Shown here piece after piece: positions 2,454 through 54,345 of a stretch of 64,000 nucleotides of DNA. Every line of letters starts with the position of its first letter. The first letter of the stretch is position 1. Below the pieces are notes generated by a model, which saw only the letters and a program-made list of their open reading frames with translations, had not been told where the DNA came from and ran no database searches. Made by a program: the position numbers and the translations under genes. Source of the DNA: Vicinamibacterales bacterium (GTDB lineage Bacteria; Acidobacteriota; Vicinamibacteria; Vicinamibacterales; UBA8438); the NCBI GenBank assembly GCA_965221595.1, contig OZ244900.1, positions 3,576,982 through 3,640,981 on the forward strand, given 5' to 3'.

Positions 2454-2619
2454 CGCAACTCCTCCAGTTTCGACAGGTTGCTTCGGCGATCGTGGTGTCC
2501 GCCGCTTCAATCAGACGGGGCTGCGCCCCGCACATCCGGGGTCATCATACCAGCCTGCGGCAAGAGGCCCCGCTGCAGTAAACGAGTGATACATCCGGCA
2601 AGGGAAGGCGCTGGATTAT

Positions 2620-43060: not shown

Positions 43061-44077
43061 ATGGCACACCGGATCACTCTCATTCCAGGCGACGGCATCG
43101 GGCCGGAAGTAACCGCTGCGGTCGTGCAGTTGCTGGGCCGGTCCGGGTTGGACATCGAGTGGGACCGCGAGCTGGCGGGCGCGGGCGCGGTCGACCGCCA
43201 CGGGGAACCGCTGCCCCGGCGCGTCCTGGACTCGATCCTTCGCAACCGGGTCGCGCTCAAGGGCCCGGTCGGCACCCCGATCGGCGCCGGCTTCCCGAGC
43301 GTCAACGTCGAGATCCGCCGCGCGCTCGAACTCTACGCGAACCTGCGGCCGGTGGCTTCGCTGCCGGGCCTGACCACCCGCTTCGACCACGTCGACCTGG
43401 TCGTCATCCGCGAGAACACCGAGGATCTGTACTCCGGCCTCGAGCACGAGGTCGTGCCCGGGGTCGTCGAGTCGCTGAAGGTCATCACCGCCCAGGCGTC
43501 CGAGCGCATCGCCCGCTTCGCGTTCTCGTACGCCCAGGGCCGGGGCCGCCGCCAGGTGACCGCCGTGCACAAGGCCAACATCATGAAGCTGGGCGACGGG
43601 CTGTTCCTCGATTCGGTCCGCAAGGTGGCGCAGGACCACCAGGACATCGAGTACGCCGAGCGCATCGTCGACGCCACCTGCATGCAGCTCGTGCTGGACC
43701 CGGGGCAGTTCGACGTCCTGCTGCTGCCGAACCTGTACGGCGACATCGTGTCCGACCTGTGCGCGGGACTGGTAGGGGGCCTCGGGCTCGTGCCGTCGGC
43801 CAACCTCGGCGAAGACCTCGCCGTCTTCGAGGCGGTGCACGGCACCGCGCCCGACCTCGCCGGGCAGGGCCTGGCGAACCCGACGGCGCTGCTGCAGTCG
43901 GCCCTGCTGATGCTGCGCTACCTGAACGAGGACGAGACGGCCGCCCGCCTCTTCACGGCGCTGGAGCGGGTGCTAGCCGATGGCCGGGTGCGGACCCCCG
44001 ACCTGGGCGGCACCGCCACCACGCGCGAGTTCACCGATGCCATCGCGCAGCAGATGGAAGTCAGTCTGCCTCTGTGA
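43061..44077 (+). CDS. NAD-dependent isocitrate/homoisocitrate dehydrogenase family protein
   Basis: Part of ORF 42791..44077. The sequence MAHRITLIPGDGIGPEV...LVVIRENTEDLYSG...NLYGDIVSDL...HGTAPD is typical. A perfect TATAAT lies at 43037-42. Confidence 0.9.
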   Translation: MAHRITLIPGDGIGPEVTAAVVQLLGRSGLDIEWDRELAGAGAVDRHGEPLPRRVLDSILRNRVALKGPVGTPIGAGFPSVNVEIRRALELYANLRPVASLPGLTTRFDHVDLVVIRENTEDLYSGLEHEVVPGVVESLKVITAQASERIARFAFSYAQGRGRRQVTAVHKANIMKLGDGLFLDSVRKVAQDHQDIEYAERIVDATCMQLVLDPGQFDVLLLPNLYGDIVSDLCAGLVGGLGLVPSANLGEDLAVFEAVHGTAPDLAGQGLANPTALLQSALLMLRYLNEDETAARLFTALERVLADGRVRTPDLGGTATTREFTDAIAQQMEVSLPL

Positions 44078-44528
44078 TGGCCGCCTGGATATCGACGTCG
44101 ATGCAGCCCCGCACGGTGTTGTAGGCCGGGCAGCCAGCCGGGTGCCGGGCCACGGCCCGCTCGGCCGCCGCGCGCTTGTCGGGCGGCACCGCCAGCTGGT
44201 AGCGCACGCGCATGCGCGTGACGCGCAGTACCTTGTCGATCGCCTCGACGTCGCCTTCGACCGTGGCGGAAATGCGGTCGGGCGTGGCCGGTATGTCGCG
44301 CACCTCCAGTGCGCGTGCAAGGGTGCCGAGCAGTCAGGCACCCACGGCCGCGACTAGGTGATCGAGCGTCGCGGGGACTTCCTCGTCCGGCTCCACGCCG
44401 TAGAACTTCTTGATGCCGCCATGGACACCGAAGCGGATTGGCGTGTCGAAATTCTCGAGAAACGCCTCCCGGATGGGGCCCTTGACGCGCTCGATGCGCA
44501 GGCGACTCGTGTGCACCAGATCTCCCAT
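44061..44528 (-). CDS. OsmC/Ohr-family peroxiredoxin-like selenoprotein, in-frame TGA at 44336-44334
   Basis: ORFs 44334..44528 and 44061..44303 are in the same frame, separated only by TGA plus 10 sense codons. The joined product reads ...PATLDHLVAAVGA-U-LLGTLARALEV...ARHPAGCPAYNTV. U aligns with the first conserved Cys of OsmC/Ohr, and the second Cys (GCP) is retained. A GGGAGG SD precedes ATG 44528. Confidence 0.7.
44297..44315 (-). other. bacterial SECIS-like hairpin
   Basis: Minus-strand CGCGCAC-uggag-GUGCGCG is a 7-bp stem with a GG-containing loop. It starts 18 nt downstream of the UGA. Confidence 0.55.
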
Positions 44529-44595
44529 GCTGCCTCCCTTCGACGCCCGGGACCTGCCCTCGACCTATCCTGCGGGGATGCTACAATCCCGGGTC

Positions 44596-45129
44596 ATGCC
44601 GAAGTCAAGCCACGCTGCCGTATTCGCATCCGCCGTCACCCTGTCGCTGCTGGTCTGCACCGGTGCCACCGCCCAGCCGGAAGAAGGCCCGGCCGGCGTC
44701 GTGAACTACACGCGCGTGGATGCAACCGTCGCCTGCGCCGGGGCGACCCCGCCCGAGGCGATGGCCGAGCTGAAGGACCGCGGCTTCGCGGCGGTGATCA
44801 ACTTCCGGACAGCCGGCGAGCAGGGCGCGACGGTCGACGCCGGGCAGGCGGCCGCCGAGGCGGCCGGGCTGAAGTACTACCACCTGCCGTTCCGGCAGGC
44901 CAGCGCCGAGGTGGCCGAGCAATTCCTCGAAACCGTGGCCGACCCGGCGAACCAGCCGGTCTTCATCCACTGCGGTTCGGCCAACCGCGTGGGGGCCATG
45001 TGGCTCATCAAGCGCGTCCGGCTGGACGGCTGGAGCCCCGACGAGGCGCTCGCCGAAGCCGAGCTGATCGGGCTGCGCAGCGCGGCCCTGCGGGAGTTCG
45101 CACTCGACTACGTCCGGGATGGCGGCTGA
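44596..45129 (+). CDS. secreted DUF442/beta-lactamase-hydrolase-like phosphatase-fold protein (CX5R motif)
   Basis: Part of ORF 44410..45129. A TACAAT box (44582-87) lies 8 nt upstream of ATG 44596. It has a signal peptide and the P-loop HCGSANRVG. Confidence 0.7.
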   Translation: MPKSSHAAVFASAVTLSLLVCTGATAQPEEGPAGVVNYTRVDATVACAGATPPEAMAELKDRGFAAVINFRTAGEQGATVDAGQAAAEAAGLKYYHLPFRQASAEVAEQFLETVADPANQPVFIHCGSANRVGAMWLIKRVRLDGWSPDEALAEAELIGLRSAALREFALDYVRDGG

Positions 45130-46597
45130 TCGCCCGGACACGCTCGGCGACATGGGGCCGGACGAGTTCCGGCGCCACGGGCACGCTCTCGTCGACTGGA
45201 TCGCCACCTACCTGAGCCGGACCGAGGCCTACCCGGTCCTGTCGCGCGCCGCGCCCGGTGACATCCGCGAGCGGTTGCCGGCCGCCCCCCCGCAGGCCGG
45301 CGCGCCGTTCGAGGCAATCTTCGCAGACTTCGAACGGCATCTGTTGCCCGGCATCACCCACTGGAACCATCCCGGCTTCTTCGCCTACTTCGCCATCTCC
45401 GGCAGCGGGCCGGGCGTGCTCGCGGAGCTGCTGTCGGCGGCTCTCAACGTGCAGGCCATGCTGTGGCGCACTTCACCCGCCGCCACCGAGCTGGAGGAAG
45501 TCGCTCTGGGCTGGCTGCGGCAGCTCCTCGGCCTGCCGGCCGCGTTCGAGGGGGTCATCTACGACACCGCCTCGGTGGCGACCCTGCACGCGCTGGCCGC
45601 GGCCCGCGAGGCGGCCCTCCCGGACGTCCGCGCCCGCGGGCTGGCCGGACGCCCCGGGCTAGGCCCGTGCCGGGTCTACGTGTCCGAGCACGCGCACTCG
45701 TCGATCGACAAGGCGGTGATGACGCTGGGCCTCGGACAGCAGGCGCTGCAGCGCATCGCGGTCGACACCGAGTTCCGCCTGCGGCCCGACGCTCTGCGCG
45801 CGGCCATCGCCGCCGATCGTGCAGCCGGTTGGACGCCGCTGGCGGTCGTGGCCACGGTAGGCACGACCTCGATGACCAGCGTCGACCCCGTGCCTGCGAT
45901 TGCCGACGTGTGCGCGGCCGAGGGACTCTGGCTGCACGTGGACGCCGCCTACGCCGGCGCCGCCGCGCTCGTCCCGGACACGGCCTGCATCCTGGACGGC
46001 TGCGGGCGCGCGGACTCGTTCGTCGTCAACCCGCACAAGTGGCTCTTCACACCGTTCGACCTGAGCGCGTTCTACTCGCGGCGCATGGACACGATTCGTG
46101 CCGCGTTCGCGCTGACGCCCGACTACCTGGCGACGCCGGAGGCCGGGCGCGTCCGGAACCTGATGGACACGGGCGTGCAGCTCGGCCGGCGCTTCCGGGC
46201 GCTCAAGCTGTGGGCCGTACTGCGCTACTTCGGGGCCGAAGGCATCCGCGCGCGGCTGGCCGAGCACCTGCGCCTGGCGCGCCTGTTCGCCGCGTGGGTG
46301 GACGCCAGTCCCGACTTCGAGCGCCTCGCACCGGCGCCGCTCAGCGTGGTCTGCTTCCGGGTAAGGCCGCCGGGCTGGCGGGAGTCGGGGAACGAAGCCG
46401 AGGGCGGCCGCATCGAGCAGCTCAACGCCCGGGTCCTCGAGACGGTCAACGCGTCGGGCGAGGTCTTCCTGTCGCACACCCGCATCGAAGGACGCTTCGC
46501 GCTGCGCCTGGCGATTGGCCACATCCGCACCGAGCAGCGCCACGTCGAGCGCGCCTGGAGTCTGCTCCAGGCGGCGGCGTCCGACCACGGGGCGTAG
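45119..46597 (+). CDS. PLP-dependent group II decarboxylase (aromatic-L-amino-acid/tyrosine decarboxylase-like)
   Basis: 492 aa with THWNHPGFFAYF and NPHKWLFTPFD (PLP-binding lysine). Confidence 0.9.
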   Translation: MAADRPDTLGDMGPDEFRRHGHALVDWIATYLSRTEAYPVLSRAAPGDIRERLPAAPPQAGAPFEAIFADFERHLLPGITHWNHPGFFAYFAISGSGPGVLAELLSAALNVQAMLWRTSPAATELEEVALGWLRQLLGLPAAFEGVIYDTASVATLHALAAAREAALPDVRARGLAGRPGLGPCRVYVSEHAHSSIDKAVMTLGLGQQALQRIAVDTEFRLRPDALRAAIAADRAAGWTPLAVVATVGTTSMTSVDPVPAIADVCAAEGLWLHVDAAYAGAAALVPDTACILDGCGRADSFVVNPHKWLFTPFDLSAFYSRRMDTIRAAFALTPDYLATPEAGRVRNLMDTGVQLGRRFRALKLWAVLRYFGAEGIRARLAEHLRLARLFAAWVDASPDFERLAPAPLSVVCFRVRPPGWRESGNEAEGGRIEQLNARVLETVNASGEVFLSHTRIEGRFALRLAIGHIRTEQRHVERAWSLLQAAASDHGA

Positions 46598-46633
46598 CTT
46601 CCAGCAGACGGGGCTGCGCTATACTCGCCGGCC

Positions 46634-47926
46634 ATGGACGTCGCGGTGGTCTCGCTCGGGGCGCTGGCGGTCGCCATCATCGTCAGTTGCACCATCCGGC
46701 TGCACGTCGGCTTCCTCGCGATTGCCCTGGCCTGGATCGTCGGCGTCTACGTGGCCGGAATGAGCCCGCGCGAGGTCATGGGCGGGTTCCCCACGCGGCT
46801 CTTCCTGACGCTGACCGGCGTCACCCTGCTGTTCTCGCAGGCGCAGGCCAACGGGACGCTCGACCGCATCGCGCGCAAGGCGGTGGAGTACTGCCGGGGC
46901 AACGTCGGCGTGATGCCGATGATGTTCTTCGTGCTCTCGTTCCTGATTGCCTCGATCGGTCCGGGCAACATCGCGACGGTGGCCCTCATTGCGCCGATGG
47001 GCATGGCGGTGGCCGGCCAGGTCGGCGTGCCCGCCTTCCTGATGGCCATCATGGTAGCCAACGGTGCGAACGCCGGATCGCTGTCGCCCATTGCCCCGAC
47101 GGGCGTCATCGTCAACGGCGTGATGGCCGACATCGGCCTCGGCGGCTACGAGTTGCTGAGCTACTTCAACAACATGATGGCGCACGTCGTGATTGCCTTC
47201 ACCGCCTACTTCCTCTTCGGCGGGTGGCGCCTGCTGGGCCGCTACCACACCGGCAGCGTGAGCATGCCGGGCGGTGCGGAAGGGGCGGCGGGCGATGCGC
47301 CGGCGGGCCGCGAGTTCACGCGGGCGCAGTTGCTTACGCTGGCCGTCATCGGCACGCTCGTGACAGGGGTCGTCTTTTTCGACGTCGACGTCGGCCTGGG
47401 CGCCTTCACGGCGGCCGTGGTGCTTGCCCTGCTGAAAGCCGGGGACGAGCTCGAGGCCGTCAAGATCATGCCCTGGCGCGTCATCATGCTCGTGTGCGGC
47501 GTGACCGTCCTCATCTCCGTCCTCGAAGCCACCGGCGGCCTCGACCTGTTCACGCGGGTGCTGGCCGGCATGTCCACGCCCAACACGGTGACCGCCGTCA
47601 TCGCCTTCTCGACGGGGTTCGTCTCCATCTACAGCAGTACGTCGGGGGTGGTGCTGCCGGCGTTCCTGCCGACGGTCCCGGGCCTTGCCGAACAGCTCGG
47701 CGGCGTCGCGCCGCTGGCGATCGCCTCGTCGATGAACGTCGGCGCCCACCTCGTCGACGTGGCGCCGCTGTCAACGCTGGGTGCCCTGTGCATGGCCGCC
47801 GCCCCCGCCAGCGAAGACAGCCGCGCGCTGTTCAACAAGCTGCTGGCCTGGGGCTTCTCGATGACCGTCGTCGGCGGCTTCACCTGCTGGCTGCTGTTTA
47901 CCGTGCTGCGCGTCGGCCTCGGCTGA
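46634..47926 (+). CDS. anion/dicarboxylate permease (ArsB/NhaD superfamily, MatC-like)
   Basis: 430 aa, polytopic, with a duplicated-half architecture. A TATACT box lies at 46620-25. The subfamily call is tentative. Confidence 0.7.
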   Translation: MDVAVVSLGALAVAIIVSCTIRLHVGFLAIALAWIVGVYVAGMSPREVMGGFPTRLFLTLTGVTLLFSQAQANGTLDRIARKAVEYCRGNVGVMPMMFFVLSFLIASIGPGNIATVALIAPMGMAVAGQVGVPAFLMAIMVANGANAGSLSPIAPTGVIVNGVMADIGLGGYELLSYFNNMMAHVVIAFTAYFLFGGWRLLGRYHTGSVSMPGGAEGAAGDAPAGREFTRAQLLTLAVIGTLVTGVVFFDVDVGLGAFTAAVVLALLKAGDELEAVKIMPWRVIMLVCGVTVLISVLEATGGLDLFTRVLAGMSTPNTVTAVIAFSTGFVSIYSSTSGVVLPAFLPTVPGLAEQLGGVAPLAIASSMNVGAHLVDVAPLSTLGALCMAAAPASEDSRALFNKLLAWGFSMTVVGGFTCWLLFTVLRVGLG

Positions 47927-47976
47927 ACGGCGGTCCCTCCGGGTTATCCGGGTTGCGGTCCATCAAGGAGAGAGTC

Positions 47977-49284
47977 ATGACGAGACTGAAGACGCCGAGT
48001 TGCGTGCTGCCGGTGATGCTGGGCCTGGCCGTGTGTGTGGGGCTGGCCAACGCGCCGGCCGACCTGCCGCAGATGGACGGCGTGCCCACCGCGGAGCCGG
48101 AGGCGGTCGGGATGTCCTCGGCGCGGCTCGAGCGTCTCGACCGGGTGATGCAGGGCTATATCGACCGCAACGAGGTCGCGGGCGTCGTGACGCTGGTTGC
48201 GCGGCGGGGCAAGGTCGTGCACTTCTCGGCCCTGGGACAACGGGACGTCGAGGCCGGCGCGCCGATGACCCACGACGCCATCTTCCGCATCGCGTCGATG
48301 ACCAAGCCCATCGCGTCGGTCGCGCTGATGATGCTCTACGAGGAAGGTCGCTTCCAGCTGCGCGACCCGATCGCCCGCTGGCTGCCGGAGTTCGCCGACA
48401 TGCAGGTGGCGCTGCCCGCGCCGCCGCAGGAGCGGCTGACCGGCCGCTACAAGACGGTGCCTGCCGCGCGACCGATCACCGTGCAGCAGATTCTGACCCA
48501 CACCGCGGGTCTCGCGAACAGCTACCGCGGCCTCACCCAGCCGGAGTTCCTGGAGCTGGTGGCGCCGCGGAAACCGGGCGACACGGTGGATGGCATGCTG
48601 AAGCGGCTCGCGACGCTGCCCCTCAACTTCCATCCCGGGGACCACTGGGAATACGGCCGGGCCACCGACGTGGTCGGACGGCTCGTGGAAGTGATGTCGG
48701 GCCAGACCCTCGACGCGTACCTGCAGGAACGCATCTTCGAGCCGCTCGACATGGTCGACACGCACTTCTATCTGCCGCAGTCGAAGCTGGACCGGTTCGC
48801 CGCGCTCTACCGTCCGAACGCGCAGGGCACTATCGAGCTGTCGGAGGCGCCGACCGCGGAGAGCCGCTTCGTGGCCGAGCCGCACACCTACTTCAGCGGC
48901 GCCGGCGGACTCGTATCGACCGCCCGCGACTACTTCCGCTTCCACCAGATGATGCTGAACGGCGGCGAGCTCGACGGCGCGCGCATCCTCAGCCGCAAGA
49001 CGGTCGAGCTGATGACCGCCAACCACACGGGCGACAAGGGCATCTGGCTGGCTGGGCCGGGCTACGGATTCGGCCTCGGCTACGCGGTGGTCACCGACCT
49101 CGGACCGTCCGGCACACCGCGCTCGGAAGGGTCCTACTACTGGGGTGGCGCCTACGGGACGATCTTCTGGGTGGACCCGTCCGAGGAGCTGATCGGCATC
49201 CTGATGGAGCAGATCCGGCCGTATACCCATCTCAACGTCCGGCCGGACCTGGCCACGATGACGTATCAGGCGATAATCGACTGA
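47977..49284 (+). CDS. serine hydrolase, class C beta-lactamase/penicillin-binding family
   Basis: Part of ORF 45463..49284. ATG 47977 has an AAGGAGAG SD and is followed by a signal peptide. The SxxK motif is ASMTK, and a YxN-type region follows. Confidence 0.85.
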   Translation: MTRLKTPSCVLPVMLGLAVCVGLANAPADLPQMDGVPTAEPEAVGMSSARLERLDRVMQGYIDRNEVAGVVTLVARRGKVVHFSALGQRDVEAGAPMTHDAIFRIASMTKPIASVALMMLYEEGRFQLRDPIARWLPEFADMQVALPAPPQERLTGRYKTVPAARPITVQQILTHTAGLANSYRGLTQPEFLELVAPRKPGDTVDGMLKRLATLPLNFHPGDHWEYGRATDVVGRLVEVMSGQTLDAYLQERIFEPLDMVDTHFYLPQSKLDRFAALYRPNAQGTIELSEAPTAESRFVAEPHTYFSGAGGLVSTARDYFRFHQMMLNGGELDGARILSRKTVELMTANHTGDKGIWLAGPGYGFGLGYAVVTDLGPSGTPRSEGSYYWGGAYGTIFWVDPSEELIGILMEQIRPYTHLNVRPDLATMTYQAIID

Positions 49285-49377
49285 GCCGCAAACGGCGCAG
49301 CGGGCTGCAGCGGACGGTTCCGCCCTGTCGGCAGCGGTCGCAGGGTCCGGCGCCTCCTCCGTCGGAGGGCGGGCCGC

Positions 49378-50171
49378 ATGAGGCTGCTCCACCTGTGTCT
49401 CCTCATCCGGCAGGAGAATCCGCAGCACTGGGCGCGGGTTGCCAAGTGGATGCGACACCTGTTCGACATCGACCCGCAAAAAAAAACCGGTCCAGAACGG
49501 AGCGCCTCCAGCTCAGCGACTTCACGGAGGAGTGCTTTCGCCGGCTTGCCGCACGGCTCGATCACGCGATGCTGTTTCGCAAGAGAGAACTCTACCGCCT
49601 CGTCGACTACTTGTCGGATGACGAGATTCCAGAGGAGGTAGGCACCAAACTCGACCTGCTCGATGACTTGTCCACGAAGGCGCAGCACGAAGGGGAAGAA
49701 CACGAGATGACGGGCGAGGCACCTAACGGCGGCGGAACGAAACGCCGATGGTTGGAAGACGAACTCGAAGTGCTACTCGACGAAGAGGGCGGACAGAGCG
49801 TCGACGAGCAGGCGTTCGAGAATGCCAGGAAAGCGGCCCAGGACGTCGGGGCCGCGGTGAGGACACTCGAGGACGCCAACAGACGATCCGACCAGAAGAT
49901 CGCCGACCTCTGCGGGGCTGTTTTCGTATACGGAGCCCTGTTTGCGGGAGTGCAGCTAAACCACGACATGAGGAGGGAGCTGCTAAAGAGGCGAGGCCGA
50001 CCGGGCGATGACGAATGCGCACAGCGACTAGAAGCATTCCACGTCCGCCACGTGGAAATGCTGGCGGACGAGATCGAGGATCAGACGAAGGTCGACCGCA
50101 TGAGGAAGCTTGTTCGGGGTACCCTCGACAAAGCCAGGGCGGTGAAACTTCTCGGACAAGTGTGGAAGTAA
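49378..50171 (+). CDS. acidic hypothetical protein whose frame changes by -1 at an A9 tract (49478-49486)
   Basis: ATG 49378 has a GGAGGG SD 8 nt upstream and encodes MRLLHLCLLIRQENPQHWARVAKWMRHLFDIDPQKK. Protein-like sequence then continues only in the -1 frame (NRSRTERLQLSDFTEECFRRLAARLDHAMLFRKRELYRLVDYLSDDEIPEE... to stop 50171). No domain is recognised. Confidence 0.45.
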
Positions 50172-50254
50172 CAGTCCGACGGGCGCACCGCTATACATCA
50201 AGGGCAAGCGTACAGGTCGGAATCCTCCCGATCCGGCAGCCACCTGGACTGTCT

Positions 50255-50400
50255 GGGCGCCGCGGTGCCCCTTGCTGCGCCGGTGTTGTCCGTCAGGCGT
50301 CGCCGGTGCTGACGTTCGCGCGGCGGCGCGGTCACGGCGCCCGACGAGGAACCTATCTACCGAGCCTTCGAGCTTTGCCATGCGATCGCGGTTCTCGGTG
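50255..50400 (-). pseudogene. decayed 3' fragment of a paralog of the coiled-coil gene 51631..52113
   Basis: It translates to ENRDRMAKLEGSVDRFLVGRRDRAAA, compared with ENRERMANLEGALEGFLAGRRDRDAA at the 3' end of 51631..52113. The downstream non-coding flank is also about 70% similar. The stop codon is lost and there is no 5' part. Confidence 0.55.
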
Positions 50401-50659
50401 AGTCCACCACGCGGCAACGGCCACCGTGCGCGCATTTTGCCGAGATTTCGGCCTTGGCGAGCCCCTTAACTTTGGGCGATGGCGTCTTGGTTCAGGTTAC
50501 GATACGCGCGGTTTGGTCGCCTCTCACAGTTGTCCCATGTCCGCTCATGGAGCTTCGTCGTCTTCGGCGATGCGTCTTCAGCGACTTGCTGAGCATGCTT
50601 GGTAGCGGCAACACGAAAGGGTGTGTCGAAGGCGACCTGCTTCCAGGTCGAACGAAGCA

Positions 50660-51508
50660 CTAGTCGCGCCCACGGACGAACGCGGCGATCTCCGCGGCAA
50701 CGCGTGCAGGCGCATCCAGGGGCAGGAAGACACTCGCTCCAGCCACCTCGACCAAGCGTGCGTCCGGGAACTCGCGGGTGAGATCCTGCGCGAGCTGGAG
50801 CGGAAACAACTTGTCTTCATTTCCCCAGACCAACAGCACCGGCGCCCGGAAGCCGGCGAACTTGCGGGTGGCCGCGAGCATCATCTCGGGCTTGCAGCCG
50901 GCCAGGAAGTCGAGGGACGCCCGCCGCACGGCCGCATTCCGTGCGAATGGCCCCACAATCCGTTCCTTCAGGTCGCCTGGCACCGGATTCGAGCAGGTCG
51001 GGCCGAAGAAAGCCGCATAGTCGTTGCGCGACATGAGACGCCCGAGCAGAGGACTGGCAAGCCAGGGCGCCAGGCGCGCGAAGTTCTGCATGGGCTGAAA
51101 GGCCTTGGGCGGAAACTGGTCGAACACGTCCGAGTTGGTCAGCACGAGTCGGCCTACCCGCGCCACGGCGGGATGCTCCGAGGTGATAAGGAGCTGGCAG
51201 ATGCCGCCGCCGGAATCGTTTCCCACGAGCGTGACGTCCTGGAGGTCCAGGACTTCCATGAACTCGCAGACCATGTCGACGACACCCCGCGGCGAGAGAT
51301 CAGCATCGCGCGGGAACGCCTCCGGCTGCGAGCCCAGGGGCCAGTCGGGCGCGATGCCGCGGAAGCCGCCGGGCAGCGCATCGATGACCCCTTTCCACAG
51401 GTGGTGATTGGCCCAGATGCCGTGAACGAACAGCAGGACGTCACCTGAACCCGTGTCCAGATAGTGGAGCCGCCCGCCCGATTTCAGAGTATGAACCTTC
51501 TGTTCCAT
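50660..51508 (-). CDS. alpha/beta-hydrolase fold protein
   Basis: Part of ORF 50660..51532. ATG 51508 has an AGGGGGA SD. Features are LLFVHGIWANHHLW (HG oxyanion region) and the nucleophile elbow VGNDSGG. Confidence 0.85.
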   Translation of the reverse strand: MEQKVHTLKSGGRLHYLDTGSGDVLLFVHGIWANHHLWKGVIDALPGGFRGIAPDWPLGSQPEAFPRDADLSPRGVVDMVCEFMEVLDLQDVTLVGNDSGGGICQLLITSEHPAVARVGRLVLTNSDVFDQFPPKAFQPMQNFARLAPWLASPLLGRLMSRNDYAAFFGPTCSNPVPGDLKERIVGPFARNAAVRRASLDFLAGCKPEMMLAATRKFAGFRAPVLLVWGNEDKLFPLQLAQDLTREFPDARLVEVAGASVFLPLDAPARVAAEIAAFVRGRD

Positions 51509-51630
51509 GCGTCCCCCTGCCCGCGTCCCCAACGCCGCAGCCCGTGGGCCAAGGTCGGCGGAAGGGTCCCGGCGTGGCGGCGCCCCTTGCGGTGCCCGTC
51601 CTTGATGTCCGGGTCAGCCGGTACCGGCGT

Positions 51631-52113
51631 TCAAGCGGCGTCGCGGTCGCGGCGCCCGGCCAGGAACCCTTCGAGCGCGCCCTCGAGGTTCGCCATGCGC
51701 TCGCGGTTCTCCGCGAGCTCCTGGTGCACGCGGTCGAAGCGTTGGTGCATTTCGCTCGTCAAGTGCTCGAACCGGTTGTCGAATCGGCGGTTCGTTTCGT
51801 CGATCTGCCTATTGGTCTCATCGATCCGCCTGTTGGTCTCGTCGATCCGGGCTCCCAAGTCGGCCTTCAGCTCCTTCATCTGCGCGCCGTTGGCCTCGAA
51901 CGGCTTGCCGATGTTCATCGTCAGGATGCGCAGCATCAGGCCCATCACCCCGACGATGCCGATTCCGGTTCCGACGAGGGATATGACGATCGCCGCTGTC
52001 TCGGTCACGGTGGCCCCACGATACCACCTCCCCGTCAGGAGCGTCCGACTGATCCGTGGTCTGACGGCGTGGGTCTCGGTTGTCGGGATCAGGCCGGTCC
52101 GGCTTCCGGTCAT
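51631..52113 (-). CDS. single-TM protein with a heptad-repeat coiled coil (IDETNRR x3)
   Basis: 160-aa ORF. The TM segment is AAIVISLVGTGIGIVGVMGLMLRIL. Three 21-bp tandem repeats at 51791-51853 encode IDETNRR/IDETNRQ/IDETNRR. The C-terminal motif is MANLEGALEGFLAGRR. The true start may be GTG 52008, because the first 35 codons overlap a duplicated non-coding segment. Confidence 0.55.
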   Translation of the reverse strand: MTGSRTGLIPTTETHAVRPRISRTLLTGRWYRGATVTETAAIVISLVGTGIGIVGVMGLMLRILTMNIGKPFEANGAQMKELKADLGARIDETNRRIDETNRQIDETNRRFDNRFEHLTSEMHQRFDRVHQELAENRERMANLEGALEGFLAGRRDRDAA

Positions 52114-52117
52114 AGCC

Positions 52118-52147
52118 TTGACGCGGCATCCCTCGCGGCGACATTAT
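52118..52147 (+). promoter_or_regulatory. promoter P1 (duplicated cassette copy 1)
   Basis: TTGACG (52118-23), 18 nt, CATTAT (52142-47). It is nearly identical to P2 at 53502-53531. Confidence 0.5.
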
Positions 52148-52175
52148 CGACTCGCAGGGAGGTGCGGCGACCGGC

Positions 52176-52272
52176 ATGACCGGAGACGACGCGCTGAACC
52201 GTCCCGTCACGCAGGCGCAGCTTCGCCGTCGTCGGCGGCATCGTCGCGCTGAACGCCGTCGATCTGCTCTGA
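52176..52272 (+). pseudogene. internally deleted, frameshifted copy of the small TM-protein gene 53559..53753
   Basis: MTGDDALNRPVTQAQ matches MAGDDVMNSPVTQAQ. The 3' end gtcgtcggcggcatcgtcgcgctgaacgccgtcgatctgctctga matches the 3' end of 53559..53753 (VVGGIVALNAVDLL*) but in another frame. About 100 nt of the middle are missing. Confidence 0.55.
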
Positions 52273-52281
52273 GGGTTGTAT

Positions 52282-53439
52282 ATGGATATTCTCGGACTCA
52301 AGCCGGAGGTTCCGAAGGACCCGATCGGCCAGGTGCTCACCCGGGATGGACACCCGACGCTCGCGGTGATCGATCTCGGCAGGGAGGTGAGCGAGGCACT
52401 ACGCGACTCGTGGCCGGCAACGCGCCCGTTCGAGTCGGGCGGCGCGATCGACAGCAAGTGGCTGCTGCCGATTCTCGGTGTCGGCGGCACGGCAGTTTCG
52501 TCCCTGTCTGCGGGGAACGTCTTCCTGGCGACAGCGAATCCCGCGACGCTGATGACCATCGGCGCCGGGGTGGGGTCGGCGGTCATGGGACCGAAGGGGA
52601 TCATCGCGGCCGCTCCGTTCGTTGCGGCCAGCCAAGCGCTCCTGCCGGTCGTGGCGCCGATCATGCTCTTCATGACCGTGTCGTCGTTGACGACCGGCGC
52701 GCGGCTCGAACGCATGCACCGAGCGATCGGGGCGCTCTCCGAAGACTTGCAGCGCGTGCGCCATCTGATGGAAGTCGAGGACTACGCTCGGCTCGTGAGT
52801 GCGGCCGAGCATCTCGACGAGGTCGGCTCGGCGTTCGAGCACGCTCAGCGGTTCACGGACGCCATGAAGAATGAACTCGCCCTGGCCAGGAGCGAAGTCA
52901 AGCGACTGCGGCGCAAGTTCGGACACCTTGCCGTGAGGGAGCTCCGGTCCGAGCAGGATGCCAGGTTGGCCGTGTCCGACATCAATCTGTTCGTGCTGTC
53001 GAGCCTCATGGATCTCCGGGCGGATGCACTCCGTCTCCAGTTGACGCTCCAGGACAATCCGGACTTCGTGGAGCACCGCGGGGCCGCCCTGCTCACGAAA
53101 GTCGAAGAGTGCGCCGACACCTTCAGAAAGATGCTCGAGCGCAATCCGGTGGCGGCATTCCGGGACGAGCAGCAGCGGAAGCTGGATGAGCTCGGCCGGT
53201 TCCGGCGAGGGCTTGGAAGCGGTCGGCCCCTTCGGAAGACCATCGGGGCGGTCAACACCGTCCTGAACAAGGACTTCGCCCCTGTACGGTCGCGCCTGGA
53301 GCGGTGGATCAGCGAGTTCGAGGCGTCCGGCCCGGCGGCGCAGGAAGAGTCCATCGTGATCTACCAGGAGCGGGACGACGGGCGCGCCTTGAGGGCCCAC
53401 CACACCCGCGACCTGCGCCTGGTGCAGGTCGCGGCCTGA
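52282..53439 (+). CDS. orphan 386-aa protein: Gly/Ala-rich hydrophobic N-terminal half plus a long alpha-helical C-terminal half
   Basis: ORF 52276..53439. ATG 52282 has a GAGGG SD 6 nt upstream. Codon usage is protein-like. No motif is recognised. Confidence 0.6.
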   Translation: MDILGLKPEVPKDPIGQVLTRDGHPTLAVIDLGREVSEALRDSWPATRPFESGGAIDSKWLLPILGVGGTAVSSLSAGNVFLATANPATLMTIGAGVGSAVMGPKGIIAAAPFVAASQALLPVVAPIMLFMTVSSLTTGARLERMHRAIGALSEDLQRVRHLMEVEDYARLVSAAEHLDEVGSAFEHAQRFTDAMKNELALARSEVKRLRRKFGHLAVRELRSEQDARLAVSDINLFVLSSLMDLRADALRLQLTLQDNPDFVEHRGAALLTKVEECADTFRKMLERNPVAAFRDEQQRKLDELGRFRRGLGSGRPLRKTIGAVNTVLNKDFAPVRSRLERWISEFEASGPAAQEESIVIYQERDDGRALRAHHTRDLRLVQVAA

Positions 53440-53501
53440 GTACTGGCTGCGGTTCGCGGTGCTGCAGATCGGCCCCGGTCGGCCCGCTGCCGGTCTCTGC
53501 C

Positions 53502-53531
53502 TTGACGCGGCATCCTCCGCGGCGACATGAT
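53502..53531 (+). promoter_or_regulatory. promoter P2 (duplicated cassette copy 2)
   Basis: TTGACG (53502-07), 18 nt, CATGAT (53526-31). Confidence 0.5.
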
Positions 53532-53558
53532 CGATTCGGAGCAGGCACGGTGACCGGC

Positions 53559-53753
53559 ATGGCTGGAGACGACGTCATGAACAGTCCCGTCACGCAGGCG
53601 CAGTTCGAGGCCTTCCTCGCCGAGTTCCGCCAGCTCAGGGAGAACTCGGTCACGAAGCACGACGTGTTTCAGGTCGTGCTTCTCGTGCAGACCGCCTACT
53701 TCGCGGTCGTCGTCGGCACCATCGTCGTGCTGAATGTCGTCGACCTGCTCTGA
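53559..53753 (+). CDS. 64-aa protein with a C-terminal TM helix (holin/XhlA-like topology)
   Basis: MAGDDVMNSPVTQAQFEAFLAEFRQLRENSVTKHDVFQVVLLVQTAYFAVVVGTIVVLNVVDLL. It is the last part of ORF 53304..53753 and lies 28 nt downstream of P2. Confidence 0.5.
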   Translation: MAGDDVMNSPVTQAQFEAFLAEFRQLRENSVTKHDVFQVVLLVQTAYFAVVVGTIVVLNVVDLL

Positions 53754-53874
53754 GCGTCCCCCGGGGTCGGCGCACCCGCACCAGCGTCATTCACAGGAAT
53801 CGAAATCCTGATGGCTGCGAATCAACTCGCGCAGGCCCGGGAAGGCTGGCCACTGATCGCTGCGACGCAGACTC

Positions 53875-54345
53875 CTACGGCGCCCGGAACGTGTCCGGCA
53901 GGATCGACTGGAACTGCAGGCCCCATCTGCCGTCCTGCTGCGTGATGATGAACAGCGACGGAACGGTGCGGTAGGGCGTGCCGTCCGGGCGGCGGCGGCT
54001 GAACACCACCTCGAAGTGCACCTTGTCGGCGGCCACCTGCAGGGGCTCGGCGCGATCGATGGTGCTGTGGTCCCAACCTTCCGTCTGCCGGAGACGCGCG
54101 AAGTCGGTCACGACGTCGGCGGGACCTTCCCGCACGGTGACCTGCCCGTTGCGACCCAGGCTGAGCCGCGGGTAGTTGCAGGCTGCGGCGATGGCCTCGT
54201 TGTCCTCGGCGTTCCAGGCGCGGAAGTACTCGTCGAGCGCCGCCCGTGCGTCTTCCAGCGGGTCCTGTGCCGCTGCCGACACCGGCACCGCCATGGCGAC
54301 GGCGACGGCGACGGCGAGCCCCGCGACCAACCTGAGCTTGCCCAT
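53875..54345 (-). CDS. secreted SnoaL-like/DUF4440 (NTF2-fold) protein
   Basis: 156 aa with a signal peptide. LDEYFRAWNAEDNEAI is typical of the SnoaL-like N-terminal helix. Confidence 0.7.
   Translation of the reverse strand: MGKLRLVAGLAVAVAVAMAVPVSAAAQDPLEDARAALDEYFRAWNAEDNEAIAAACNYPRLSLGRNGQVTVREGPADVVTDFARLRQTEGWDHSTIDRAEPLQVAADKVHFEVVFSRRRPDGTPYRTVPSLFIITQQDGRWGLQFQSILPDTFRAP

Follow-up and report, generated by a model that had tools for sequence, protein, structure and literature searches.

What occupies the interval between a serine hydrolase gene and a SnoaL-like gene (positions 49285-53874) in a 64,000-nt stretch of DNA from an uncultured Vicinamibacterales bacterium (hereafter the window; assembly GCA_965221595.1, contig OZ244900.1, positions 3,576,982 to 3,640,981), and what kind of locus is it? 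An earlier reading of the letters alone (the sequence-only reading) had described a lower-GC mosaic island of orphan genes, with internal duplications and decay, between two core genes. Among the remnants of others, the island holds the genes that we call A2 (49707-50171), B (50660-51532), C (51631-52008), D (52282-53439) and E (53559-53753; Table 1). We think it fairly probable that the locus is a defence-type variable hotspot with a decayed mosaic cargo, in which D is a candidate membrane-acting defence gene; a hotspot of this type with decaying cargo is an already known kind of feature.

The evidence that carries this reading comes from synteny. Exact look-ups of the proteins of the window gave no record, and relatives could be reached only through a homologue of E (P0241, leading to L169; homologous loci are numbered with L and called proteins with P) and then through 90%-identity clusters of a flanking permease (leading to L171-L179), and one of their contigs, OY762226.1, is labelled Vicinamibacterales. 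Upstream collinearity with these relatives extends for up to 13 kb at 88-92% nucleotide identity and runs through the serine hydrolase gene, on whose orthologues Pfam Beta-lactamase is recorded, to an end at 49289 (L171, L174-L177), 49314 (L169) or 49320 (L173). On the right, where Pfam finds SnoaL_2 (E 6.5e-4) and Cyclase (8e-23), window 53875-55344 matches L173 14094-15546 at 89.6%, and L176 16904-17013 matches at 92%; L173 holds both flanks, at 88% and 89.6% respectively. In the relatives a promoter-plus-E cassette resumes 43-50 nt past the end of the hydrolase homology and matches window 53500-53755 at 85-90%. For example, L169 5-5875 corresponds to window 43495-49314 at 90% and L169 5925-6221 to window 53501-53755, and about 4.19 kb of the window stands where L169 has 50 nt and L171 and L172 have 43 nt. 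All nine syntenic relatives lack 49.3-53.5 kb, as expected of the accessory mosaic island that had been proposed, and none of them gave a tblastn match to A2, B, C, D or a small open reading frame (ORF), F.

What the relatives carry at this site varies. In L169, E is followed by a CRISPR array and Cas2/1/4/3 genes (two called genes of 198 and 53 aa directly after E, at L169 6883-8099, are the translated array, with a recurring FTIPMRGNE), and in L171 and L172 by a gene for a TonB-dependent receptor and a type III restriction-modification (R-M) system (PADLOC MTase_III, E 1e-194, plus a ResIII-domain gene). The other sets comprise E, the receptor, an ATPase and BrnA (L173); a remnant of E, the receptor, the ATPase and a Phd-like antitoxin (L175 and L176); and a remnant of E, the receptor, an AbrB-like/Fic pair and the ATPase (L174). 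The ATPases of these relatives are 588-598 aa long and match NsnB, AriA, Old and GajA. At least four cargo sets can be told apart (L169; L171/L172; L173/L175/L176; L174), and that of the window is unique.

Because the relatives share flanks and differ in cargo, we regard the locus as a variable hotspot with mainly defence-type cargo, of which the window content is private. The interval from the serine hydrolase to the SnoaL/cyclase genes is a recombination-prone variable site in this marine Vicinamibacterales lineage, and it shows what a defence hotspot should, namely conserved flanks with differing cargo and, in some genomes, recognised defence systems at the site. Defence hotspots and islands between conserved core genes have been described in Escherichia coli and Pseudomonas pangenomes. 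These have the same conserved flanks, genome-specific cargo (CRISPR-Cas, R-M, OLD-like ATPase, toxin-antitoxin) and lack of an integrase at the site, whereas the present one lies in an uncultured marine Vicinamibacterales host, has a receptor and a hydrolase among its cargo, carries in the window no recognised intact defence gene, and has its cargo bracketed by diverged duplications of resident small genes.

The left third of the island holds what remains of an ATPase gene of the kind seen in the relatives. What had been taken for an acidic orphan with a frameshift at an A9 tract proves to be two ATPase pseudogene fragments fused in frame to an intact 154-aa gene, A2. Fragment a matches L168 358-504 by tblastx and, over 49385-49477, L173 11944-12036 by blastn at 76%. 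Fragment b is 75-80% identical in nucleotides to the ATPase 3' ends of L173-L176, aligns as protein to P0267-P0270, and has its equivalents at L168 1445-1645 and L173 12944-13147. Window positions 49477 and 49492 correspond to L173 12036 and 12944 and to L168 504 and 1445, and the 5' end of the gene is also missing; what survives, about 370 nt in total, represents positions 557-649 and 1557-1760 of the 1767-nt L173 gene. No intact ATPase with Walker motifs (AAA_15/AAA_21 domains) is left at 49324-49706, while the intact 588-aa L173 orthologue has these features and matches PADLOC NsnB, AriA, Old and GajA together with Pfam AAA_21 and AAA_15. The orthologue resembles the OLD, AriA (PARIS), GajA (Gabija) and NsnB ATPases in this pairing of domains (PADLOC matches of 1e-14 to 1e-23), but the matches are limited to the ATPase core, a system-specific partner gene was not seen, and the window keeps just the two dead fragments.

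Because its stop codon is lost, the ATPase remnant reads in frame into A2, whose part of the chimeric ORF starts at 'MTGEAPNGGG'; the upstream part aligns to the C-terminus of the AAA_21 ATPase. The 12 homologues of A2 (151-172 aa, 60-76% identity) match over the full length and share a Met-Thr start, and the copy in L167 adjoins a CRISPR-Cas locus and a resolvase gene. The AlphaFold2 model of A2 is a helical bundle (pLDDT, the predicted local distance difference test, 74) with no significant match in the PDB.

The base composition of the island only partly marks it as foreign. The drop in GC seen in the letters is real, at 65.3% against 70.8% for the remaining window, and all 15 of the lowest-GC segments of 4,590 nt (sliding by 100 nt) overlap the island. 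The codon anomaly that was looked for alongside it is present in the left third only: against a background GC at third codon positions (GC3) of 0.879 +/- 0.041 (29 long background ORFs), A2 (0.72, the lowest among the credible genes of the island), the second ATPase fragment (0.75) and ORF F (0.63) all fall short, whereas B (0.81), D (0.85), C (0.89) and E (0.89) are near native. Since the GC3 anomaly is confined to A2, the ATPase remnant and ORF F, only the left third looks compositionally foreign, and the low total GC of the right part is largely due to low GC at second codon positions, which reflects a helix-rich protein composition.

The internal duplications and the decay reported by the sequence-only reading were both recovered. 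One direct repeat pairs 50251-50402 with 51566-51717 (74-76% identity) and spans the 3' end of C and 65 nt downstream; the other pairs 52099-52276 with 53483-53757 (83-86%) and comprises the two promoter/small-ORF cassettes already noticed in the letters, the first of which lacks about 97 nt within its small ORF. Both duplications are restricted to the island interior. The decay extends to the two ATPase fragments, a dead C copy (C') and a gutted E copy (E'). Each cassette is headed by a promoter-like site (TTGACG, 18 nt, CATTAT or CATGAT), a type of site found three times against 0.3 expected. E' retains 50 nt at its 5' end and 56 nt at its 3' end, with the intervening nucleotides gone, and ends 8 nt before D. 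Copy 2 is 85-90% identical in nucleotides to the E genes of relatives (89.6% for L171/L172, 85% for L173) and copy 1 77-85%. As its identity to the relatives equals that of the flanks, copy 2 is the orthologous cassette, and copy 1 is a gutted, more diverged duplicate.

The first repeat pair, formed by the C 3' ends, encloses B (with ORF F), and the second, formed by the promoter-plus-E cassettes, encloses D. An integrative element would look different: we saw no integrase or transposase ORF and no recombinase domain in the island (ORF list and Pfam scan) and no tRNA in window 30-64 kb, as had been noted before, and the repeats are internal instead of lying at the island ends. Because the cargo lies between direct repeats of resident sequence, the arrangement fits integration of circular DNA by a single crossover. 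The pieces would have arrived by recombination at repeated family sequences, for example through single-crossover integration or unequal exchange between paralogues, with deletions coming later and no dedicated recombinase needed. The conserved ends of the C and E families, in both of which the length of the coiled coil changes by seven-residue steps, could supply the homology and seem to act as recombination anchors. Since D lies 8 nt after E' and starts 135 nt after the -10 element of copy 1, it is probably driven by the captured E promoter; it would then be transcribed from this duplicated promoter with the E' remnant as leader.

D itself is no orphan. Its family numbers at least 379 homologous clusters, none with a Pfam domain; the best 120 of them are 52-75% identical, and the orphan label suits C (about 460 homologues), E (13 representative clusters) and A2 (12 homologues) no better. 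Four parts make up the protein: a short N-terminal domain, an almost uncharged segment (residues 55-140), about 200 residues of helical bundle and a beta-hairpin at the C-terminus. The second of these, with three charged residues among 86 and a composition dominated by Gly, Ala and Pro, is better conserved in the family than any other part; over residues 107-131 its Kyte-Doolittle 19-residue mean reaches up to 1.98, hydrophobic enough for a membrane helix. Twelve residues are invariant even when a 21%-identical protein of the lactococcal plasmid pNP40 and proteobacterial members at 35-40% identity are included, and nine of the 12 are in the uncharged segment. The top Foldseek matches to the D model are JukB (a jumbo phage killer effector, PDB 9jht), AhlC and ClyA, which like D combine a long helical bundle with a hydrophobic segment, but these matches, made with a low-confidence model, are non-significant (E 0.12-1.7; template modelling scores of 0.13-0.31, JukB 0.24-0.31) and amount to no more than a lead. 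The helical bundle is modelled at pLDDT 70-90.

Among species-representative genomes, the family occurs in Vicinamibacterales, Longimicrobiales/Palauibacter, Bryobacterales, Latescibacterota, Binatia, Gammaproteobacteria and a Paracoccaceae metagenome-assembled genome (MAG), and many of the MAG names look like those of sponge or coral bins. D moves between sites: in the relative OY762226.1 the D homologue lies about 1 Mb from the hotspot. Two D paralogues, 66-67% identical to the D of the window, lie about 790 kb apart on OZ244881.1 (4.43 Mb, Vicinamibacterales; L013 and L014).

Elsewhere, too, D is found among defence genes. We examined 111 nearest neighbours of D from about 60 non-redundant other genomes, and filtered the clustering of ORFs around D on GC3 since spurious high-GC ORFs swamped the unfiltered clusters. 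PADLOC models matched ZacC four times (best E 0), DrmA four times (best 4e-270 across models), HmaA twice, PglZ twice (1e-255), TmtA three times and DrmD/BrxH/DpdE-type helicases five times, and Pfam matches included integrase (four), DUF222 (three), HNH (two), transposases, PIN and Peptidase_M78. The neighbours include DISARM, BREX, Zorya-associated, R-M, integrase and transposase genes. They are heterogeneous, with no fixed partner among them, and no neighbour of D in the window recurs beside it elsewhere. In four Palauibacter/Longimicrobiales loci (L044, L055, L065 and L084) D lies 13-103 nt downstream of a same-strand ORF for a helicase of about 1,100 aa. It is probably these helicases that match ZacC at E = 0, which would suggest a possible helicase-D operon, unlike the solitary D elsewhere.

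A distant homologue lies on pNP40, a conjugative and well-studied dairy phage-resistance plasmid. A mechanism affecting phage DNA penetration was reportedly ascribed to this plasmid in 1996, without the gene being identified. The homologue (WP_012477737.1, Lactococcus lactis, NC_010901.1 9536-10669, annotated as hypothetical) is 28% identical to D over 227 aa (pairwise E 2e-21) and of nearly equal length (377 vs 385 aa); the two share the uncharged segment, 'F(L/M)ATANP..LM...GVGSAVM......F......P(V/I)VAP', followed by a helical region, but the relationship is distant and BLAST leaves the N- and C-terminal thirds unaligned. Copies of WP_012477737.1 are present on 10 other lactococcal plasmids, and the gene is always divergent from a DUF2130 and TrlF-like ATPase pair, which is absent from the window, and adjoins R-M genes. 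We also asked whether the pNP40 homologue might be Audmula, a defence protein of lactococci that has membrane helices at its N-terminus and a helical domain at its C-terminus. This was rejected, since Audmula is a 392-aa, PBP (penicillin-binding protein)-transglycosylase-like protein of another plasmid. The lactococcal homologue was not found among the systems named in a study of the lactococcal plasmidome (PMC11381338).

From this genomic context, which is the main clue, we infer that D is a candidate stand-alone membrane-acting defence gene. Its product would be a defence effector that the conserved uncharged segment holds at or in the membrane and the helical bundle controls. When a phage infects the cell, this effector would compromise the membrane in the manner of abortive infection. 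A wider proposal, that D and its relatives in Acidobacteriota, Gemmatimonadota, Latescibacterota, Binatia, Proteobacteria and lactococcal plasmids are a new anti-phage family of single, membrane-acting genes without a Pfam or PADLOC model, we regard as speculative and rather doubtful.

Several results weigh against the reading of the locus as a defence-type hotspot with D as a defence gene. AlphaFold2 models D poorly (pLDDT 59, with residues 51-161 below 50), and the model has no significant fold or sequence match to solved structures, the best being JukB at E 0.12. The neighbour counts stand without a matched background control, and a tested phenotype was found for no D homologue, that on pNP40 included. 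The intact cargo of the window matches no known defence protein in PADLOC, and the sole recognisable defence-type gene is a dead fragment. Nor is the site purely defensive, as B is an enzyme of a generic kind and a TonB-dependent receptor is among the cargo of the relatives. The relatives have the order hydrolase-E-receptor-ATPase and the window hydrolase-ATPase remnant-...-E, so that, with the ATPase remnant before E here and the ATPase after E in the relatives, the history needs several events. Lastly, at 74-86% the identity of the repeats is low for recent RecA-mediated recombination, and the events must therefore be old or the partners diverged.

Another explanation is ordinary strain-variable accessory DNA with no common function. 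The site would be a junkyard in which unrelated genes (the hydrolase, membrane proteins, pseudogenes) collect and decay, and the defence neighbours of D would simply reflect the clustering of accessory genes in variable regions. The generic hydrolase, the receptor of the relatives, the amount of dead DNA in the island and the uncontrolled neighbour enrichment all suit this explanation, as does the outcome in PADLOC-DB 2.0, where the intact window genes A2, B, D and E have no match and C gives only coiled-coil noise (LeoBC, 1e-5). We nevertheless judge it rather unlikely, because known defence systems occupy the same site in at least three configurations, because the neighbours of D, in several phyla and on lactococcal phage-resistance plasmids, include strong and nearly full-length matches to DISARM, BREX, ZacC and HmaA components, and because D is highly conserved, both in its best 120 homologues and in the residues kept down to the pNP40 protein. 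This is the serious rival to the defence-type hotspot; the toxin-immunity and prophage readings that follow are poorly supported.

The E'-D-E arrangement would be explained if the locus were a toxin-immunity module, bacteriocin-like or of the polymorphic toxin type, with D as membrane toxin and E as immunity factor. A small membrane protein does lie on both sides of the membrane-active-looking D, and the spread of D across phyla suggests horizontal transfer. However, none of 84 other D loci has an E-like sequence beside D (tblastn, E up to 5), and all syntenic relatives have E without D. A Pfam scan found no secretion signal or known toxin-delivery domain in D, around which lie defence and mobile genes rather than secretion systems. 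We consider such a module very unlikely.

More improbable still is a prophage or lysis-cassette remnant, with E as a holin/XhlA-like protein, C as a spanin- or holin-like coiled-coil protein and D as a membrane-disrupting lysis protein. E is a small tail-anchored membrane protein in which a coiled coil precedes a single C-terminal membrane helix, which is the topology of XhlA/holin-like proteins and had prompted that comparison from the letters; C has a membrane helix and then a coiled coil, and matches phrog_1009 (a phage family, function unknown) weakly but almost over its full length (E 6e-6). Yet E has no Pfam XhlA or holin match and is not phage-linked: in the relatives it is chromosomal, has a conserved promoter of its own and is a standing neighbour of the hydrolase (directly adjoining it in L171 and L172), and no phage genes were seen in the stretches of these relatives that were examined. 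The island has no endolysin, structural or integrase genes, D is absent from IMG/VR viral contigs and from 50,697 GenBank phage records, and C-family genes occur many per genome in non-phage settings. The earlier guess that the parts belong to lysis, toxin or defence modules goes in the right direction, with CRISPR-Cas, R-M, ATPase and toxin-antitoxin genes at the site in relatives and D among defence genes elsewhere, but nothing phage-like turned up and the XhlA/holin reading of E is not supported. An assembly artefact, whether a chimeric MAG contig, a mis-join or a collapsed repeat, as the source of the mosaic and of the A9 'frameshift' is scarcely credible even for an uncultured-genome assembly with error-prone homopolymer tracts. 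Several independent assemblies share the collinear order of both flanks, the two copies of each repeat have diverged (74-86% identity), and what is missing at the A9 tract by comparison with four intact orthologues is 0.9 kb and not a single nucleotide. In addition, the records place the called proteins P0001, P0121 and P0254 together on one contig of 3.85 Mb.

Table 1. Features of the island and its two flanks, in window coordinates (nt, nucleotide identity).
Position	Strand	Feature	Basis or detail
48040-49284	+	Left conserved flank, beta-lactamase-family serine hydrolase	Collinear, 88-92% nt, with L169, L171-L177
49285-49320		Intergenic stub still common to relatives	blastn homology stops within stub
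49324-49477	+	ATPase pseudogene fragment a, internal piece of AAA_15/AAA_21 ABC ATPase	tblastx, blastn
49478-49491		Deletion junction with A9 tract (49479-49487)	About 0.9 kb of ATPase gene gone
49492-49706	+	ATPase pseudogene fragment b, 3' end, stop codon lost	Nucleotide and protein alignment
49707-50171	+	A2, intact 154-aa acidic helical protein, small unnamed family	12 homologues
50251-50438	-	C', dead 3' fragment of C-family gene with 65 nt of downstream sequence in common with C	Coding part 50316-50438, stop codon changed to CGA
50439-50659		No convincing gene	64-codon ORF (F) 50466-50660 (-), GC3 0.63, no family match
50660-51532	-	B, alpha/beta-fold hydrolase, 290 aa	Pfam
51631-52008	-	C, 125 aa: N-terminal membrane anchor, RIDETNx heptads, invariant C-terminal tail	Family alignment
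52099-52276	+	Cassette copy 1: promoter-like site 52118-52147 and E', gutted small ORF	Repeat comparison
52282-53439	+	D, 385 aa	Homologues, alignment, AlphaFold2, hydropathy
53483-53757	+	Cassette copy 2, native: promoter-like site 53502-53531 and E (53559 or 53577 to 53753)	Synteny
53875-54345	-	Right conserved flank, SnoaL-like protein, then cyclase-family gene	Synteny, Pfam

The remaining features of the island largely agree with what had been read from the letters. B is an alpha/beta hydrolase, as proposed (Pfam Abhydrolase_1, E 8e-20, 71.9 bits against a cut-off of 25.8, residues 32-270; Abhydrolase_6, 2e-19); among NCBIfam models it reaches only dehalogenase and lactonase models below threshold, and no equivalog at its cut-off. 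It is the one island protein that the Pfam, PADLOC, PHROGs and NCBIfam scans recognise; the others gave nothing convincing there. The coiled-coil gene fragment placed near 50255-50400 is the 3' end of a C-family gene with a mutated stop (52% identical by tblastn to residues 121-160 of C), and the adjoining piece described as gene-free has no convincing gene. The 21-bp repeats of the transmembrane/coiled-coil protein were found in C as 2.4-3 units at 51779-51849 (Tandem Repeats Finder). We place the start of C at the GTG at 52008 and not at the ATG at 52113, because the homologues are mostly 107-133 aa long.

The C family has a conserved N-terminal membrane helix, from zero to more than 12 RIDETNx-type repeats and an invariant tail, ENRERMAKLEGSLDGFLAGRRDRDAA, and it is multi-copy, with six copies on one 97-kb contig; in a 20-kb stretch of that contig five of them alternate with glycosyltransferase gene fragments. 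A 10.6-kb stretch (L085 1-10600; European Nucleotide Archive ERZ21830300, ctg713769l) carries five C-family genes that differ in their numbers of RIDETN / RIDDVKTELGR repeats and are interleaved with recurring pieces of a TPR / Glyco_transf_9 / Methyltransf_21 gene and a 32-codon ORF; this cluster looks like a segmentally duplicated, length-variable array. At two paralogous loci about 180 kb apart on one 7.27-Mb contig (L086 5317-12378 and L170 5318-12399), a C-family gene lies in the order LexA-like S24 peptidase, C-family gene, small ORF and Zorya type I, the last comprising a ZorA-like gene, a gene for 286-287 aa without a Pfam match in the ZorB position, EH_Signature, and SNF2 with Mrr_cat. 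As these two loci share this order, the C-family gene may be a regular companion of a Zorya variant. A conserved RNA or recombination site downstream of C was considered and rejected: the 65-nt similarity is limited to the two window copies and is not conserved at other C loci, and hence does not point to an RNA element or a site dedicated to recombination.

The E family comprises proteins of 55-96 aa with a variable number of heptads and a conserved 'VTKxDVFQ...VGTVVVLNAVG' end. In L174-L177 E is reduced to a 74-nt 3' remnant (e.g. L175 12675-12748). Because these four relatives keep the remnant only, E must be dispensable, and it decays in this lineage too.

Outside the island, the serine hydrolase gene was also used to search for synteny in Joint Genome Institute metagenomes. 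The 80 loci obtained (at most 87% aa identity, source GC 50-71%) did not share neighbours and were uninformative for the site. In these marine metagenome contigs (L087-L166) the homology to window 48025-49288, at 80-87% aa identity, starts and stops at the gene ends (stopping at 49288), and the gene seems to be exchanged, or to be unusually conserved, as a single-gene unit. At window 41519 the relatives have an extra segment of about 137 nt (compared with L171 4698-4737), 40 nt of which are 87-90% identical to window 2504-2543; this 40-nt sequence may be a small dispersed repeat, like repetitive extragenic palindromes (REP) or miniature inverted-repeat transposable elements (MITE).

For this poorly studied, uncultured marine acidobacterial lineage, the comparison documents a variable hotspot flanked by core genes, at which CRISPR-Cas, type III R-M, OLD-like ATPase, toxin-antitoxin and the window cargo alternate at one site. 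Its chief interest lies in the D family, and a lesser one in the variable-length C and E families. D, a supposed orphan, becomes a concrete target as a member of a large, strongly conserved and unnamed family found beside defence systems in several phyla, and the pNP40 homologue offers a direct test system for that family. If the family does act against phages, its pNP40 member might account for a resistance phenotype of the plasmid that has not been tied to a gene.

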